NCBI RefSeq assembly: GCF_963921235.1 | Contig: NC_086108.1 | Location: forward strand, 74,650,001 to 74,714,000 | Length of the DNA stretch: 64,000 nucleotides | Source of the DNA: Mobula hypostoma | Taxonomy: Eukaryota | Direction of reading: 5' to 3' | Part shown: positions 21,528-58,968 of the stretch, piece after piece | Position numbering within the stretch: the first letter of the stretch is position 1 | Layout: each line of letters opens with the position of its first letter | The notes under the pieces: model-generated | The model's database searches: none | Seen by the model: the letters and a program-made list of their open reading frames with translations, nothing else | What the model was told of the DNA's origin: nothing | Position numbers and translations under genes: made by a program

Positions 21528-21808
21528 ATAATATCAGGAGAATGCTACCGGATCCATTACATGAAGGAACATTCCAAGTCCTTTATCCGCAACCCATATG
21601 TAGCTGCTCTGTATAGACAAGTCGGCTGCTTCATCTTTGGCTGTGCTATAAGCCAGTCCTTTACTGACATTGCAAAAGTATCTGTTGGTCGCCTGAGGCC
21701 ACACTTTTTAGATATTTGCAAACCAGATTTTTCAATGATCAACTGTTCCCTGGGTTACATTGAGAACTTCGAATGCAGAGGGAATGAAAGCAAGGTTCAG
21801 GAAGCAAG
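21528..21808 (+). CDS. PLPP3: PLPP3 internal coding exon (equivalent to human exon 3), contains C1 motif KxxxxxxRP
   Basis: Acceptor ttaacag|ATA and donor GCAAG|gtgatt; 281 bp. Translates [94 protein letters not shown], closely matching the recalled LPP3 sequence ([40 protein letters not shown]). Confidence 0.96.
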
Positions 21809-22829: not shown

Positions 22830-23580
22830 CGACCAGTCCCATAAAGCGTTGTGCCTCGGCCTAAGTGTTACACCTGCCCATACACCTCCTCCCTCACCTC
22901 CATTCAGGGCCCCAAAAGAGTACTTCCAGATGAGGCAACACGTCACCTGCGAATCTGCCGTCTGTTGTCTGTTGTGTCCGGTGCTCCTGATATGACCTCA
23001 AATACTAGGTGAGATCTATCGTAAATTGGGGGACCCCTTTGTCAAGCACCTCTGTGCCATCTACCACAAGTGGAACTTCCTGGTGTCAAAACATTATTAT
23101 TCTGATTCCCATTCTCGTTTTGACATGTCGGTCCACAGCCTCCTCTTTTGCCACGATGAGGCCACCTTCAGGGTGGAGGAGCAACACCTTGTATTCTGTC
23201 TGGTTCGCCTCCAACTGGATGGAATGAATATTGATTTCTTCTGGTTTAAAAAAAATCCCTCCCCCACCCTTTGACTTTTCACCTCACCTAACTATGACTT
23301 CCTCCTGGGTCCCCTCCTCCTTCCCTTTCTCCTATGGTCCACTCTTCTCTCCTATCAGATTGCTTCTTCTCCAGTTCTTGTCCTTTCTCACCCACCTGGC
23401 TTCACCTTTCACCTTCCAGCTCGCCTCCTTCCCCTCCACCTTTTTATTCTGGCATCTTAACCCTTCCTTCTCAGTCCTGGAAAAAGGTCTTGGCGTGACA
23501 TAGCAGCTGTTTATTCATTTTCATAAATGCTGCCTGACCTGTTGAGTTCCTCTAACATTTTGTGTGTGTGTTGCTTTGAT
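22830..23580 (+). mobile_element. Older Penelope-like element 3' part (GIY-YIG remnant, pyrimidine-rich UTR, degenerate pLTR)
   Basis: ORF pieces HVTCESA and DMSVHSLLFCHDEATFRVEEQHLVFCLVRLQLDGMNIDF are homologous to the 38 kb element. Confidence 0.85.
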
Positions 23581-25749: not shown

Positions 25750-25807
25750 GAAGTCGTTCTTCTCAGGACATGCCTCGTTCTCATTATACACCATGTTATA
25801 TTTGGCA
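25750..25807 (+). CDS. PLPP3: PLPP3 internal coding exon (equivalent to exon 4), C2 motif SGH
   Basis: Acceptor gttttgcag|G and donor GCA|gtaagt; 58 bp. First G completes the AG/G Arg codon from the previous exon, then KSFFSGHASFSLYTMLYLA. Too short for the ORF track. Confidence 0.96.
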
Positions 25808-28605: not shown

Positions 28606-30142
28606 AAGATAGCTTAGCCTCTTTTACTGTAAAGAGAATGAAATAATTGTTACTCCAGATCCGATGCAACACAAAAAAACAAACCCCACAAAAGATAAAG
28701 AACACAATAGCAGTACTAAAAAAACACACACACATTTTAGCCTTGACTGACAAATAGAACTGCAGGCCACAAATGTACATTATTTATTAGAATGGTATTT
28801 GGACTAAGCTGTATCTATATCACAGTCCTCTGAAATTGTCATACTGAAATAAAGTGTCATTAAAATGATTAAACATTCAGTTTCTTTAAATATGTTACAA
28901 AATTTCTGTGTGGCATTTTTTTTTGTAACTTGAAATTTCTGAATGAATGTTTTTATTCTTTTATTTAAAATAATCCTTACCACATAAAATTCCCTTAAGG
29001 CCAAAAACTGTTAAACAGAATTAGCCATGTACAGTTGTACGCTTAACTGTTTTCCCTTTATGATGTGAGGTTAAAGATTACTGGAATGTTGAAAAAAAGT
29101 GCTTGACCCTACCTCCAGATTCAGTTTACTGATGCTGCCCAGATACTGGGCTTCACATGGCTTGATTTATGATGCTTCTCAAATTGGGGTCAGTCTCTTG
29201 CCAGTTTAAGAGCAATGACATTGCAATAACTCAAATGCCTTTTCTCATTATAATATGTTCTAATGCATAGTAGCTTGGAGATTTTAAGCAATAGAAGCAT
29301 TTTTCCAAGACTGTAGCAATAAAATGGTCAATTGTTCTTGAAAAGTGCTTTTTCAACTAATTCCCAGCACAATGCTCTTTGTCTGTGGATTATGCCCCTA
29401 ATGTTATTAATAACAGAGCAGAGTGAAACTCTGAGTTGTATTGAGAAGCGAATACTGCATGGCATACAGCACTCATCTGACAGGCCTCAAAACAAGAAAA
29501 AGATTCTGGGAATATATACAAAGTGCTACTCATGGAGGGGCACAGACTTCTTGGCTGGGAATTGAATTACTTCCGTTGGGATTTGCTTTGATTTAAAAAG
29601 GGTTAAATATTGAAATTTAAAGGAAGGCTCCTTTCCTTTAATGTCAATAAATTCTTAAGAATCAAAGTAAGATTACAATGTAGAAATTCATATCAGTTGT
29701 ATATGCTTACAGGCAATGCAGGAGCAGCTGCAAGTGGCTTCCACTTTATAAACTTGGGTTCATTGAAGTTAGTCAAACTGAATTTCGGAAGCAGCCGATG
29801 ATATATGATCATTCTGAAATTTTGTAATTTAGCATAATGACCTAGAATGAATTTCAGCTTTACAGTCCCATGGAAATTTTAGTGTACTTATTAGGTAGTG
29901 TTAGAATGATGCAGATACTTTGACACAGTGTATAAACCTTTAGTTGCAACTGAGGCCCAGTGCTTCAGAGACTTGCCTTGGGTTTGTAAGGTGGTTAAGG
30001 GAGAGGCACAACTAGGAGTCAGACACCAGTTGTATCCATGTGATAGGGTCTATTTGGGGCAATAATGGGAGGCAAACAAGGAGAATGGCCTTTGAGTGTC
30101 TGTGGTCGATGGGAATATTTGAAGCTAACAACTGAAGGAGAA

Positions 30143-30332
30143 CAACAGGAATTCTGCAGATGCTGGAAATTCAAGCAACACACATCAAAGTTGCTGGTGA
30201 ACGCAGCAGGCCAGGCAGCATCTGTAGGAAGAGGTGCAGTCGACATTTCAGGCCGAGACCCTTCGTCGACTGCACCTCTTCCTACAGATGCTGCCTGGCC
30301 TGCTGCGTTCACCAGCAACTTTGATGTGTGTT
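30143..30332. mobile_element. 190-bp palindromic Penelope pLTR insertion
   Basis: Perfect 68-bp inverted arms 30177-30244 and 30265-30332 with a 20-nt loop; 13-bp TSD aactgaaggagaa at 30130-30142 and 30333-30345. Confidence 0.92.
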
Positions 30333-35985: not shown

Positions 35986-37725
35986 TGTGTCATTTGTTGT
36001 AGAGCAGTTCTGTCTGCCATTTATTTTTGTTTGCTTTAACAAACTTTTATGGAAAATATTTCTGTAAAATGTGGAGAAACTTGATTCATTCATGAATGCA
36101 TGATATTAAAGTAATCTCTTGGTGATAAAGAGATGTGTGGTTATTTTTCAACTAAGAACAAGGGACATTTCTATTCTACTGAACTCTTGTGTGCTAATTT
36201 ATTAAACCTCTGTACTTTTTATACCAAATTAAGAAAGTTTATTTAATTTGGGCTTGAGGGAAAGTAGCTGAGTGAGGAGAAGGTGGGAAATGTTTTCCCT
36301 GCCTTAGAGACAAAACATATGAGACTGCAGTAATTCGTTCATGGATACATCACTAGGGATGTTAGAAAACCATGTCTTTATTCTGGTGTGGCTTTTTCAG
36401 AGCTTTAGTCAGTATGTAGGTTTTGGCTGAATCAAATAATGATTGTGAGATATTGGTAGTTTGTTTTCATTTAGTCTCTGTGTGTTCTGTTGCACAGTGT
36501 CACTGTTGATTATAAATTGCTTATTAAAAATAATTCATTAGTTTTGTAGAGCAATATTGAGTCTTGGAGTTGGGAGGATCGTATAAATGTAAACTTAATT
36601 ATTCAGGAGTTAATAATATTGCCGTGACTTTTTTTGTTCACCTCGACATTTTAACGTACAGTGTCTCTTTATCTTGGCTGCTTGGAGTTCGAAAGCGGAT
36701 AAAAACAAATCTTTTCAGTACGCACTTGGAGCAAGCAGTTTAGTGTGGCAGAACACATCCCATTCTCTTGTGCACTTAACCATACTCTGAAAATTCCAGC
36801 CCATTCCTAACATTGATGATGTTACAGACTATCAGCATTATTGTTACTTTATTGAACAAGATAATCTTTCAATGCTGAAAACTTGTCTGAATGAAAGCTG
36901 TTTTAAATTGTGACAAGTGTTCTCCTAAACTATTTTAAATAACTCAGAATTGAATAAACAATTTTCATTATGCATTTTTTTTGCCAAACATAAAGTAGGT
37001 TGGTGAGCTTAGCTTTAGCTTTGTTGCTCAATTGTGCTGGTAAGTAATAAGTTTCACAATGACAATGATTAATTTTCTAAGATGCAAATCTCAATAAATA
37101 ATTTATGGAGATACTTTTATCAGATGTAACCCCCAGTGGCTTATGATTTTAACATATTTCTCATGAATTATATCTACATTTATATTATGAACGTACAAAA
37201 CAAAACCTAAAAGAAAGCTCAGAGTTACATAAAAATGTTTAACGTTTAGAATAATCTTCTCAGAAGTGTTGGAGATTAATTAACATATTAAATAGCATAA
37301 ATATGTGGTTGTAGGTTATTTTGAATTTATTGCTGTTGGTGGTTAGGAATTGAAGAAAAAGTTAATGATTAAATAACATGACCAAAAACAGCTTTCACTA
37401 ATATCATAAGCACAACCTAATTCTGAGTGCTAGTCTGTGACATAAACCTTTCTCCTTGCATTTCCATACAGAGAATTCTTGGATGCAATCCTCCATGAAT
37501 ACCAAGAGGAAATCTGTTTAAAAAGAATTTTACATTAGCTTAAACCAGAGAGAAATTGCTCAATTGATTTAGTTCTGTAAATATATTGATCTCTGTCTTT
37601 GCACTGTACTGCTGTCACAAAACAGCAAATTTCATGTCACGTGTCAGTGATAATAAATCGGAGCAACACACATCAAAGTTGCTGGTGAACGCAGCAGGCC
37701 AGGCAGCATCTATAGGAAGAGGCGC

Positions 37726-37761
37726 AGTCGACGTTTCAGGCCGAGACCCTTCGTCAGGACT
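37726..37761 (-). ncRNA. Minimal type I hammerhead ribozyme in the pLTR
   Basis: Minus strand reads AGTC-CTGACGA-AGGgtctcggCCT-GAAA-C-GTC/GACT: complete core, helix I AGUC:GACU, 3-bp helix II, palindromic ACGU helix III. Confidence 0.85.
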
Positions 37762-38062
37762 AACTGAAGGAAGAGTGAGTAAGGGATTTGAAAGTGGGAG
37801 GGGGAGGGGGAGGGGGAGATGCAAAATGATAGGAGAAGACAGGAGGGGGAGGGATAGAGCCGAGAGCTGGACAGGTGATAGGCAAAAGGGGATACGAGAG
37901 GATCATGGGACAGGAGGTCCGGGAAGAAAGACGGGGGAGGGGGGTGACCCAGAGGATGGGCAAGAGGTATATTCAGAGGGACAGAGGGAGAAAAAGGAGA
38001 GTGAGAGAAAGAATGTGTGCATAAAAATGAGTAACAGCTGGGGTACAAGGGGGAGGTGGGGC

Positions 38063-38990
38063 CTAGCGGAAGTTAGAGAAGTCAATGTTCATGCCATCAG
38101 GTTGGATGCTACCCAGACGGAATATAAGGTGTTGTTCCTCCAGATGTGGAATTAAAATGTGTGGCCACTGGGAGATCCTGCTTTCTCTGGCGGACAGAGC
38201 GTAGATGTTCAGCAAAGCGGTCTCCCAGTCTGCGTCGGGTCTCACCAATATATAAAAGGCCACATCGGGAGCACCGGACGCAGTATATCACCCCAGTCGA
38301 CTCACAGGTGGAGTGATGCCTCACCTGGAAGGACTGTTTGGGGCCCTGAATGGTGGTAAGGGAGGAAGTGTAAGGGCATGTGTAGCACTTGTTCCGCTTA
38401 CACGGATAAGTGCCAGGAGGGAGATCAGTGGGGAGGGATGGGGGGGACGAATGGACAAGGGAGTTGTGTAGGGAGCGATCCCTGCGGAATGCAGAGAGAG
38501 GGGGGGAGGGAAAGATGTGCTTAGTGGTGGGATCCTGTTGGAGGTGGCGGAAGTTACGGAGAATAATATGTTGGACCCGGAGGCTGGTGGGGTGGTAGGT
38601 GAGGACCAGGGGAACCCTATTCCTAGTGGGGTGGTGGGAGGATGGAGTGAGAGCAGATGTAGGTGAAATGGGGGAGATGTGTTTAAGAGCAGAGTTGATA
38701 GTGGAGGAAGGGAAGCCCCTTTCTTTAAAAAATGAAGACATCTCCCTCGTCCTAGAATGAAAAGCCTCATCCTGAGAGCAGATGCGGTGGAGACGGAGGA
38801 ATTGCGAGAAGGGGATGGCATTTTTGCAAGAGACAGGGTGAGAAGAGGAATAGTCCAGATAGCTGTGAGAGTCAGTAGGCTTATAGTAGACATCAGTGGA
38901 TAAGCTGTCTCCAGAGACAGAGACAGAAAGATCTAGAAAGGGGAGGGAGGTGTCGGAAATGGACCAGGTAAACTTGAGGGCAGGGTGAAA
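38063..38990 (-). pseudogene. PLE RT C-terminus/thumb, Cys-rich linker and GIY-YIG endonuclease (truncated, frameshifted)
   Basis: LKFTWS...LPFLDL...YYKPTDSHSYLDYSSSHP; CKRNKCYTC; VIYCVRCSRCGLLYIGET..RFAEH. A deletion near 38143 (relative to the 23 kb copy) shifts frame before EEQHLIFRLGSIQPDGMNIDF. Confidence 0.92.
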
Positions 38991-39849
38991 GTCTCGGCCT
39001 GAAACGTCGACTGCGCCTCTTCCTATAGATGCTGCCTGGCCTGCTGCGTTCACCAGCAACTTTGATGTGTGTTGCTTGAATTTCCAGCATCTGCAGAATT
39101 CCTGTTGTTTGATAATAAATCGGATTCTGGTTCAAAAGGTGGACAGTTTCCATTATATGTAGCTGGTGATGAGAGAGACCAAAGGATCAAGGCACTACAG
39201 CCAATCGCCAGTAACAGCATGTATCCCCCATGCCACCCACGAAGCACCCTGAATCCCACATCTGAGTGCTGAGTGGCTAAGCTGCTCATCCTGGTTTGCT
39301 TAACTCCAGATCTCATTATCAACCTCTCCACACCATATCTCATTGTCAACCTTTCCACACCAAGCTGTTGGTAATTCATGGCTACAAAAGTGCAGTGGAG
39401 GACATAAATGTGGGCCAGGGTTCCTGGACCTAGGTTCCCTTCTCAGCAGTTGGAACAGGAAGCAGGACGAGGGACTTGTATCAGTTCATGGCATTGTACT
39501 GGCCACAGCAGGGGCTTGTGCCATGTTTTAGCACACTATATCCCAAAACAAAATTCTGTTTTGGCCCCTTTTGGCGTGTATTCCATTAATGATCTTAATC
39601 CTGTGAGTGTATTATTTGTCCTGTACAAAGTGTCAGTTCAAGTCACCAGGCCTTGGATGAAGTCTTTCCCAGCTACAAAGAGAGAAAGTGGCAGAGACTC
39701 TGACATCTGTGGCTATAAGGCCTCTGCTAAGGGATTGGAACACTGCTGCTGATCATCATTGTCTAAAAAGAGAGGCAAGAATAAACTGAACTATTACAGA
39801 TGGTTAATTAAACTTCTGTGGTGGGCAGAATAAACACTCCTGTAAGGAG

Positions 39850-40010: not shown

Positions 40011-40521
40011 TAGAATTGCACTAATTCAGGTAAATACATTTCTTTCAGAGCTTAAAGGCAGTGTGAGTGAGCAATTCTGCTGAATAATTCAATTTTCTGT
40101 TGTTTTCAGATCTCCAGCACTTTCAGTTTATCGGTTTTAATTTTGAATAATTAGAATACCTTGATCTGGCAATTCCACAAAGCACAGATTTTATGCCTAC
40201 ACAGTAATGTTCATAGATTTACTGTAGTTGTGAAATAGTTATTACAGGTAATTAACAGCTACAGTGGAGCTGATCCAAACTCCTGGATGCCGATCAAAAA
40301 TAGATTATTTCTTTTTCCTGCCATTTGAATGATATGTTGGCACTTTTACTTAAAAGTGAAAGAGCAAGGGATTTTATCAGGAGACTTAATATGTAAAAGA
40401 TATTTAGACCATTTAGCTATCACCATGATGCCTTTATGGGAGATTTTTAACTTGATGGTTTCGGTTCAGGAAGCACCTGTGGAGGGAGAAGGTTAATTGA
40501 TCAGATTGATAAGTTATTATT

Positions 40522-40630
40522 AGTTGCCTGATGAAAGATCATCAACCTGAAATGTTAACATTTCCACACGTGCAGCTTGACTGGCTGAGTATTTTGTATT
40601 TTTATTTCCTACTTTCAGTACTTGGATTTT
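40522..40630 (+). mobile_element. Old Penelope pLTR remnant retaining hammerhead core letters
   Basis: agttgcCTGATGAaagatcatcaacctGAAAtGTTaac followed by a degenerate 3' domain; the helices are disrupted. Confidence 0.55.
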
Positions 40631-51479: not shown

Positions 51480-52180
51480 CCACTCATATTAATTCCTCTT
51501 CCTATTCCCATCCAGACATGTCAGTCTGTGCCCCCCCGCCCCCACTGCTGTGATGAAGCCACACTCAGGTTGGAGGAGCAACACCTTGTATTCCGTCTGG
51601 GTAGCCTCCAACCTGATGGCATGTACATCGATTTCTTGAACCTCCGGTAATGCCCTCCACTTCACCATTCCCCATTCCCATCTCCCTCTATCACGTTGTC
51701 TCCTTATCTACCCATCATCTTCCTCTGGTAACACACATCAAAGTTGCTGGTGAACGCAGCAGGCCAGACAGCATCTGCAGAATTCCTGTTGTTTGCGTTT
51801 TTAAAAATCTTCCTCTGGTGTTCCTCCCCCTTCCCTTTCTTTCATGGTCTTCTACCCTCTCCTATCAGATTCCTCCTTCTCCAGCCCTTTCTCTCTTTCA
51901 CCAGTTGACTTCCCAGCTCTTTACTTCACCTCTCCCTCTTCACCTCTTCACCTCTCCTGGTTTCACCAATCACCTACTACCTTGTATTTCTTCATTCTCC
52001 CCCACCCCCACCTTCGTACTCTGACTTCCCATCTTTTTCCCTCCAGGACTGATGAAGGTTCCTGGCCCAAAACAGCAAGCGTTTACTCTTTTCCATAGAT
52101 GCTACCTGACCTGCTGAGTTCCTCTGACAATTTTTGTGTGTTGCTGTGATTTCCAGCATCAGCAGATTTTCTCTTGTTTT
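51480..52180 (+). mobile_element. Older Penelope-like element 3' part
   Basis: ORF CDEATLRLEEQHLVFRLGSLQPDGMYIDFLNLR; pyrimidine-rich UTR; pLTR with CTGATGA at about 52049 but caaaa in place of GAAA. Confidence 0.85.
51730..51806. mobile_element. 77-bp minimal insertion of the young Penelope family
   Basis: 13-bp TSD atcttcctctggt at 51717-51729 and 51807-51819; inverted pLTR arm joined to the forward tail through cagcatct. Confidence 0.88.
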
Positions 52181-58791: not shown

Positions 58792-58968
58792 TTTTATCTA
58801 CAGGCCCGCTTCACGTGGAGAGGAGGCAGACTCCTTCGACCCTTGCTCCAGTTCACACTGGTGATGATGGCTTTCTACACTGGGCTGTCTCGTGTATCAG
58901 ACCATAAGCATCATCCCACAGACGTTCTGGCTGGCTTTGCGCAGGGAGCCCTGGTGGCTTATTTCATT
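58792..58968 (+). CDS. PLPP3: PLPP3 internal coding exon (equivalent to exon 5), C3 motif SRxxxxxHxxxD
   Basis: Polypyrimidine tract plus ctcttcag|TTT and donor ATT|gtaagt; 177 bp, phase 0. [59 protein letters not shown]. Confidence 0.96.

Follow-up and report, generated by a model that had tools for sequence, protein, structure and literature searches.

The window, by which we mean the whole 64-kb stretch of ray (Mobula hypostoma) DNA analysed here, carries PLPP3 on its forward strand, and one intron of this gene holds a copy of a Penelope-like element (PLE) with a minimal type I hammerhead ribozyme motif (Table 1). The PLPP3 exon at 21528–21808 is 98% identical to that of a stingray and 88–95% identical to those of other cartilaginous fishes. 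Because the gene lies on the plus strand and the motif on the minus strand, the hammerhead is antisense to PLPP3, as an initial annotation of this DNA had claimed.

Table 1. Features of the PLPP3 locus, its PLE copy and two further young insertions (positions in the window)
Feature	Position	Strand	Basis or remarks
PLPP3 exons	21528–21808, 25750–25807, 58792–58968	+	AG/GT boundaries; the last two flank the intron
PLPP3 intron with the insertion, 33 kb	25808–58791	+	
PLE insertion, 1.45 kb, 5′-truncated and 5′-inverted	37663–39109	−	Target duplications, inverted arms
3′ UTR and 3′ pseudo-LTR (pLTR) end	37663–38062	−	Ends 67 nt 3′ of the cut; no tail
Minimal type I hammerhead motif	37725–37762	−	Descriptor, covariance model, register comparison
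Predicted competing hairpin, upstream 3′ UTR with core and helix II 5′ strand	37746–37776	−	−9.9 kcal/mol, post hoc
5′-truncated ORF: RT C-terminus/thumb, CX4CXXC linker, GIY-YIG endonuclease	38063–38990	−	
CX2-5CxxC zinc-finger-like linker	38376–38402	−	Three Cys
Inverted 5′ piece: hammerhead 3′ half, pLTR end, 33-nt tail	38991–39109	+	Without CUGANGA
Left target-site duplication, 15 bp	37648–37662		AT-rich
Right target-site duplication	39110–39124		15/15 identical
Second young insertion, ~190-bp near-perfect palindrome of two inverted pLTR ends	30141–30332		Perfect 13-bp duplication
Third young insertion, inverted pLTR end and tail joined at a short repeat	51730–51806		Perfect 13-bp duplication

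The copy has the anatomy of an EN+ PLE: 5′ truncation, an inverted 5′ piece, a tail at one end only and a variable target duplication have all been described for these elements (PMC8557442, available text). The inverted piece is identical to the main arm over 86 of 86 nucleotides (38991–39076 against 37662–37747), and its tail is absent from that arm; in run X1, 539 contigs continue beyond 37662, and their consensus ends in the tail sequence. The GIY-YIG match of the ORF fragment (E = 0.001) falls under the Pfam cut-off, and full-length homologues combine RVT_1 with GIY-YIG. In the protein homologue set, which is the best 120 of 143 matches, the linker cysteines (CX4CXXC) are kept in 112–113 proteins, and C240 and C243 in 110 and 108. 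Among the matches listed, the best named homologues are shark proteins (64–65% identity), followed by coral, urchin and snail proteins (42–50%). The family DNA pattern had no match in viral contigs and none in metagenome contigs.

The Cys-rich linker pointed out in the initial annotation was found at 38402–38376 of the minus strand, between the reverse transcriptase and the endonuclease. Its CX2-5CxxC form marks the Neptune and Nematis groups, is missing in Penelope and Poseidon and is altered in Hydra (PMC8557442, available text), and the accessible part of a 2026 preprint reports the Neptune and Poseidon groups alone from vertebrates (10.64898/2026.07.22.740005). With this linker, and with relatives that share the hammerhead of a published Acropora Neptune element, the ray element is likely a Neptune, in line with the original assignment. 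The copy differs from an autonomous active PLE in its length of 1.45 kb, its missing RT core and its frameshifted endonuclease; the responsible gap lies near 38142 (about 65 nt relative to P0002), where hundreds of contigs from other copies hold added sequence. Judged by its reading frame, the copy at PLPP3 is defective and dead on arrival, since this deletion shifts the frame.

A recent insertion, in evolutionary terms, is supported by the perfect target duplication, the identical arms and a low divergence from the family: in run X1, the copy disagrees with 75% or more of the family depth at 6 of 1,328 nt (0.45%), and with half or more of it at 15 (1.1%). The recency claimed in the initial description holds; the copy itself is dead. 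The element has an observed-to-expected CpG ratio of 0.45, compared with 0.23 for the remainder of the window. The flank differs from a related species at 8 of 442 nt, and flank contigs halt or diverge at 37623, 37636 and 37639, short of the insertion junction; summed depth, which is not a copy number, is 18.7 in the flank and 1e6–1e7 in the element.

Within 64 kb there are three young insertions with perfect duplications (Table 1). The one at 51730–51806 is nested in an older PLE 3′ fragment (about 51500–51900), and the target site of the main copy seems to lie inside an older repeat (37587–37660), at which flank contigs end or branch and over which other contigs align. An older PLE fragment from endonuclease to pLTR, 75–83% identical to the young copy, occupies 22863–23240 on the plus strand. 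Seven older, decayed hammerhead or pLTR-end pieces are scattered over both strands (10226, 18933, 23473, 43342, 52049, 58649 and 58712); young and old pieces together amount to about one per 5–6 kb, and several begin near the 5′ edge of the hammerhead. Of 12 pLTR-end pieces that were aligned in the window, 1 retains the full motif.

In the standard numbering of hammerhead positions, the motif on the minus strand has a complete core, with C3–A9 at 37757–37751 and G12–A15.1 at 37737–37734; C3–A9, G12–A14, A15.1–U16.1 and H17 are all present, and N7 is C. Helix I pairs 37761–37758 (5′ strand) with 37729–37726 (3′ strand) over 4 bp, lengthened to 5 bp by a U·G wobble, whereas helix III is represented by the palindrome ACGU at 37734–37731, which includes the palindromic 15.2–16.2 of PLE minimal hammerheads. 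C17 is 37730, and the predicted cut falls between 37730 and 37729. The sequence, strand, coordinates, core, palindrome and cut position given in the initial annotation could all be read again unchanged.

A descriptor of minimal type I hammerheads matched once in the window, both strands included, whereas among 300 dinucleotide shuffles of the window 2 gave any match and none a palindromic one. Searches with hammerhead models, suggested in the initial annotation, were divided. Rfam returned no match, hammerhead included, in the window at gathering threshold, and no hammerhead between 37500 and 39300 in E-value mode, where just three unrelated chance matches appeared. A covariance model of 23 related motifs, from which the ray motif was left out, scored the latter at 30.7 bits (E = 2.3e-6 under a rough calibration); of its 14 matches in the window this was the sole strong one, the runner-up reaching 15.6 bits. 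Descriptor, relatives-only model and location in the pLTR agree on a PLE-type minimal hammerhead of type I, as originally proposed.

The relatives behind this model come from 80 related loci, in 58 of which the ORF end could be placed, with at least 150 nt beyond it in 52. A loose core pattern occurred on the sense strand of 28 of these 52 loci and on the antisense strand of 6; once two sense matches that are no hammerheads (L012 and L013) had been set aside, 26 loci remained with a hammerhead on the sense strand, 79–151 nt past the ORF end, compared with about 300 nt past the stop codon of the ORF fragment in the ray copy. We aligned the ray motif with 22 of the 26 (4 near-duplicates left out) and with L043, giving 24 rows, of which 23 were chosen by core sequence and 1 by descriptor. 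The alignment is 90.4% paired and contains 44 double-changed cells, against 15.8 in shuffled and 2–9 in slid controls, although these cells are not independent events, as many rows come from one family. Two-sided changes affect 4 of the 4 pairs of helix I and 3 of the 4 pairs of helix II across the 24 motifs.

Within the ray family, loose contig ends gather at 37761 (267 in run X1 and 211 in run X5) and at 37725 (233 in run X16), among the 24 of 4,874 ends listed, 6 per run. Subfamily similarity thus breaks at both ends of helix I, so that other family members are alike over just the hammerhead. None of 35 high-share variants falls in the 36-nt motif (0.95 expected, P = 0.39, among 40 of 218 variant rows listed).

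Some of the related loci have features of their own. In nine marine-invertebrate-type PLE loci (L010, L015, L020, L025, L040, L054, L068, L073 and L079), a pLTR piece lies upstream in inverted orientation, on the opposite strand, and in L010 and L020 this piece holds a complete second hammerhead. The hammerhead at L043:338 precedes the matched ORF region by about 2.4 kb, a position that fits the 5′ pLTR of an element of nearly full length, and its helix I resembles that of the ray motif.

Helix II has a different register from the one first drawn. The A–U closing pair of the initial annotation forms in 1 of the 24 aligned motifs and is energetically weaker in the ray copy (−1.1 against −2.3 kcal/mol), and we rejected it. 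The register that places an extra A at 37750 leaves a helix of 4 bp closed by G37749·U37738, is 95.8% paired across the aligned motifs and is more stable by 1.2 kcal/mol in the ray copy; with this register preferred, the closing pair 10.1–11.1 is therefore G·U. The word intact, applied to the motif at the outset, accordingly suits the core and not this pair, which is G–C in its clade. Among the related motifs the extra A follows A9 in 26 of 26, C11.1 is found in 26 of 26 and G10.1 in 25 of 26, and the published minimal hammerhead consensus likewise has an extra nucleotide at 9/10.1 and G10.1–C11.1 in more than 80% of cases, though not absolutely (PMC4209133, available text). By our own count, 8 of the 56 motifs shown in Fig. 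S3 of that paper have G10.1·U11.1, and the published motifs with G·U include a Schistosoma family tested as a dimer. As a known natural variant, the pair departs from the consensus but falls within the range of the published members. A literature search for a measured effect of G10.1·U11.1 gave nothing usable. U11.1 is present in 3 of 3 young pieces that cover the site (two independent insertions), which suggests a trait of the ray subfamily that may have arisen at a CpG.

Both insertion arms cross the cut site, ending 67 and 100 nt 3′ of it; among 37 pLTR pieces from a related family, 30 extend over it and none starts or stops there. At the hammerhead, the template was consequently either intact or re-ligated; since a cut and re-ligated RNA would leave the same DNA, the insertion cannot tell the two apart. 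As the inserted DNA continues for 67–100 nt beyond the cut site, it does not show the element to be ribozyme-processed, as the initial annotation had described it. With a single complete hammerhead at the locus and no core in the inverted plus-strand piece, a dimer partner in cis is missing; minimal hammerheads of this kind show no activity as monomers and weak activity as dimers (PMC4209133, available text). In the anole PLE, cleavage is protein-assisted, the hammerhead is dispensable for insertion in vitro and unprocessed RNA was used (PMC11167929, available text).

We regard it as very probable that the motif is a standard minimal PLE hammerhead carried as a passive passenger in a young, dead-on-arrival, Neptune-type copy. 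The sequence itself shows the anatomy of the insertion, an AT-rich target duplicated over 15 bp, an inverted 5′ piece and two ends that lie at the short site and at the tail end, and it shows that the inserted DNA spans the cut site. Such a copy would have been reverse-transcribed from an RNA unbroken at the hammerhead, with synthesis beginning 67–100 nt downstream of it. In master elements, whether full-length or tandem, the motif would probably be a weak cutter, acting only as a strand-swapped ACGU dimer, with protein help, or both; there, at the upstream pLTR, cleavage would most plausibly trim the transcript's upstream end or set it free.

A doubtful but possible alternative is that the ribozyme of the ray subfamily is attenuated or vestigial, a CpG-type change from C11.1 to U and an anti-core hairpin having become fixed in a master copy that would amplify without cleavage. 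U11.1 in every young piece against C in every relative is consistent with this, and Naiad PLEs have spread without canonical hammerheads (PMC8557442, available text), but the G·U pair of the 8 published motifs, the dimer-tested one included, argues the other way. The hairpin is similarly two-sided. In the native upstream context, the predicted fold pairs 37776–37764 with the hammerhead core, and core pairing to upstream RNA reaches 0.88 against a shuffle mean of 0.34, a level attained in none of 60 upstream shuffles and absent in the relatives; yet the hairpin was picked post hoc and is weak (z = −2.05, with 7 of 200 shuffles equally good), and the whole region around it folds unremarkably when compared with shuffles. 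As a clade-wide switch it was rejected, no relative standing clearly above its own shuffles. The dimer-minus-monomer energy gap of 10.5 kcal/mol also lies inside the range of the relatives (1.5–16). Nearest-neighbour energies prefer non-catalytic folds over the double hammerhead in the ray copy and in all relatives scored, a preference that carries no weight on activity because the energy model omits core interactions.

Processing of the family's transcripts by the ribozyme in vivo, the reading of the initial annotation, is unlikely in our assessment. Here, tandem RNA would be cut at both pLTRs, the unit length circularised and the cDNA extended across the re-ligated junction, following a cut-and-circularise model proposed in 2014 (PMC4209133, available text). 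Conservation across the clade, together with covariation, implies long-term selection on the fold, and the second arm of the insertion at 30141–30332 could begin exactly at G1.1, within a 4-nt ambiguity. Against these stand the lack of a pile-up at the cut site among the 24 of 4,874 loose ends listed, the position of the inversion breakpoints, none of 13 of which lies at +24 to +30 (the ambiguous arm left out), and the anole PLE, for which the available text reports no reads ending at the cut site (PMC11167929).

The same inversions raise the further possibility that the self-complementarity of the hammerhead serves as a site of cDNA fold-back or template switching that makes inverted 5′ ends, the subfamily having spread with a ribozyme muted by U11.1 and the hairpin; we give this little credence. 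The palindrome at 30141–30332 turns in the hammerhead, with one arm stopping within the core and the other starting at most 4 nt from the cut, and the turn coincides with the pairing of core and cleavage site in the predicted inactive monomer hairpin. It can be read as cDNA fold-back on the ribozyme complement or as an arm from a cleaved end. The inversion at 37663–39109 breaks in helix II, and of the 13 inversions 5 break between −10 and +28 of C3, a weak excess whose P ranges from 0.015 to 0.28 with the null used. If the fold-back reading were true, the motif would be kept partly for a role other than cleavage.

An action of the motif on PLPP3, whether through cleavage of the pre-mRNA or of an antisense transcript, is highly improbable. 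The motif does sit within the 33-kb intron, but on the wrong strand: the plus strand has neither a descriptor match nor a strong model match, and the PLPP3 pre-mRNA strand carries just the coreless hammerhead half of the inverted piece. The insertion is, moreover, young, and truncation has left the copy without a 5′ end of its own. Most likely, the hammerhead at this locus does nothing. Three other features of the locus are recorded in passing. The perfect 86-nt inverted repeat formed by the two arms, 1.2 kb apart, is a possible dsRNA or A-to-I editing substrate; the palindrome at 30141–30332 would make a hairpin of about 70 bp in PLPP3 pre-mRNA; and a weak hammerhead-like remnant with broken helices (E = 0.11), unrelated in sequence to the PLE family of the ray insertion, lies at 40518–40564 on the PLPP3 sense strand. 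As for chance resemblance to a hammerhead, to which the lack of a fitting Rfam model might point, descriptor matches and a relatives-only score far above chance, with positional conservation and covariation in the relatives, reduce it to virtually nothing.

The passenger hammerhead, which we prefer, has close counterparts among known systems. With the minimal hammerheads of metazoan PLE pLTRs it shares the type I arrangement without a helix III stem, the palindromic 15.1–16.1, the extra nucleotide at 9/10.1, the position in the 3′ pLTR, the 5′-truncated host copy and, at its 5′ end, an incomplete second copy in opposite orientation (PMC4209133, available text). It differs in its short helix II of 4 bp, in having the minority G10.1·U11.1 where G–C is usual, and in its host, there being no cartilaginous fish among the 40 species of Fig. 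S3 of that paper. Compared by eye, the hammerhead of the Acropora digitifera Neptune element in the same source is the same motif, helix I to helix I, as those of L020, L045, L052 and L075, whose ORFs are 45–49% identical to that of the ray; it shares with the ray motif the core, N7 = C, the extra A and the ACGU palindrome, but has other helix I and II sequences and C11.1 instead of U11.1. Poseidon_Ac of Anolis likewise combines a pLTR hammerhead with an AT-rich target, insertions that span the cut site and two 3′ end positions bracketing a tail of 30–40 nt, although it belongs to the Poseidon clade, without the CX2-5CxxC linker, and its protein-assisted cleavage was assayed (PMC11167929, available text).

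Non-LTR retrozymes also have type I hammerheads related to those of PLE pLTRs, as in the ray, but are tandem non-coding units with at least two hammerheads, whereas the ray insertion has a single motif and an attached ORF fragment; the accessible part of the same preprint reports type I hammerhead retrozymes from one chondrichthyan genome (10.64898/2026.07.22.740005). Our literature search, which lay outside most subscription papers and bioRxiv supplements, turned up no study dedicated to the PLE hammerheads of rays or to fold-back at such motifs, and the repeat section of 10.64898/2026.10.27.761883 does not mention Penelope.

Minimal PLE hammerheads have been known since 2014, Neptune elements of fishes included, and PLE hammerheads number thousands in fish and amphibian genomes (PMC4209133, available text). 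With so many already known, the ray motif by itself matters little. The family to which it belongs, young and very abundant, with perfect duplications and two kinds of 3′ end, is nonetheless good material on the role of the PLE hammerhead, and it lends itself to a computational look at whether copies start at the point of cleavage, whether selection acts on the core among master elements and whether the ribozyme is where inversions turn.
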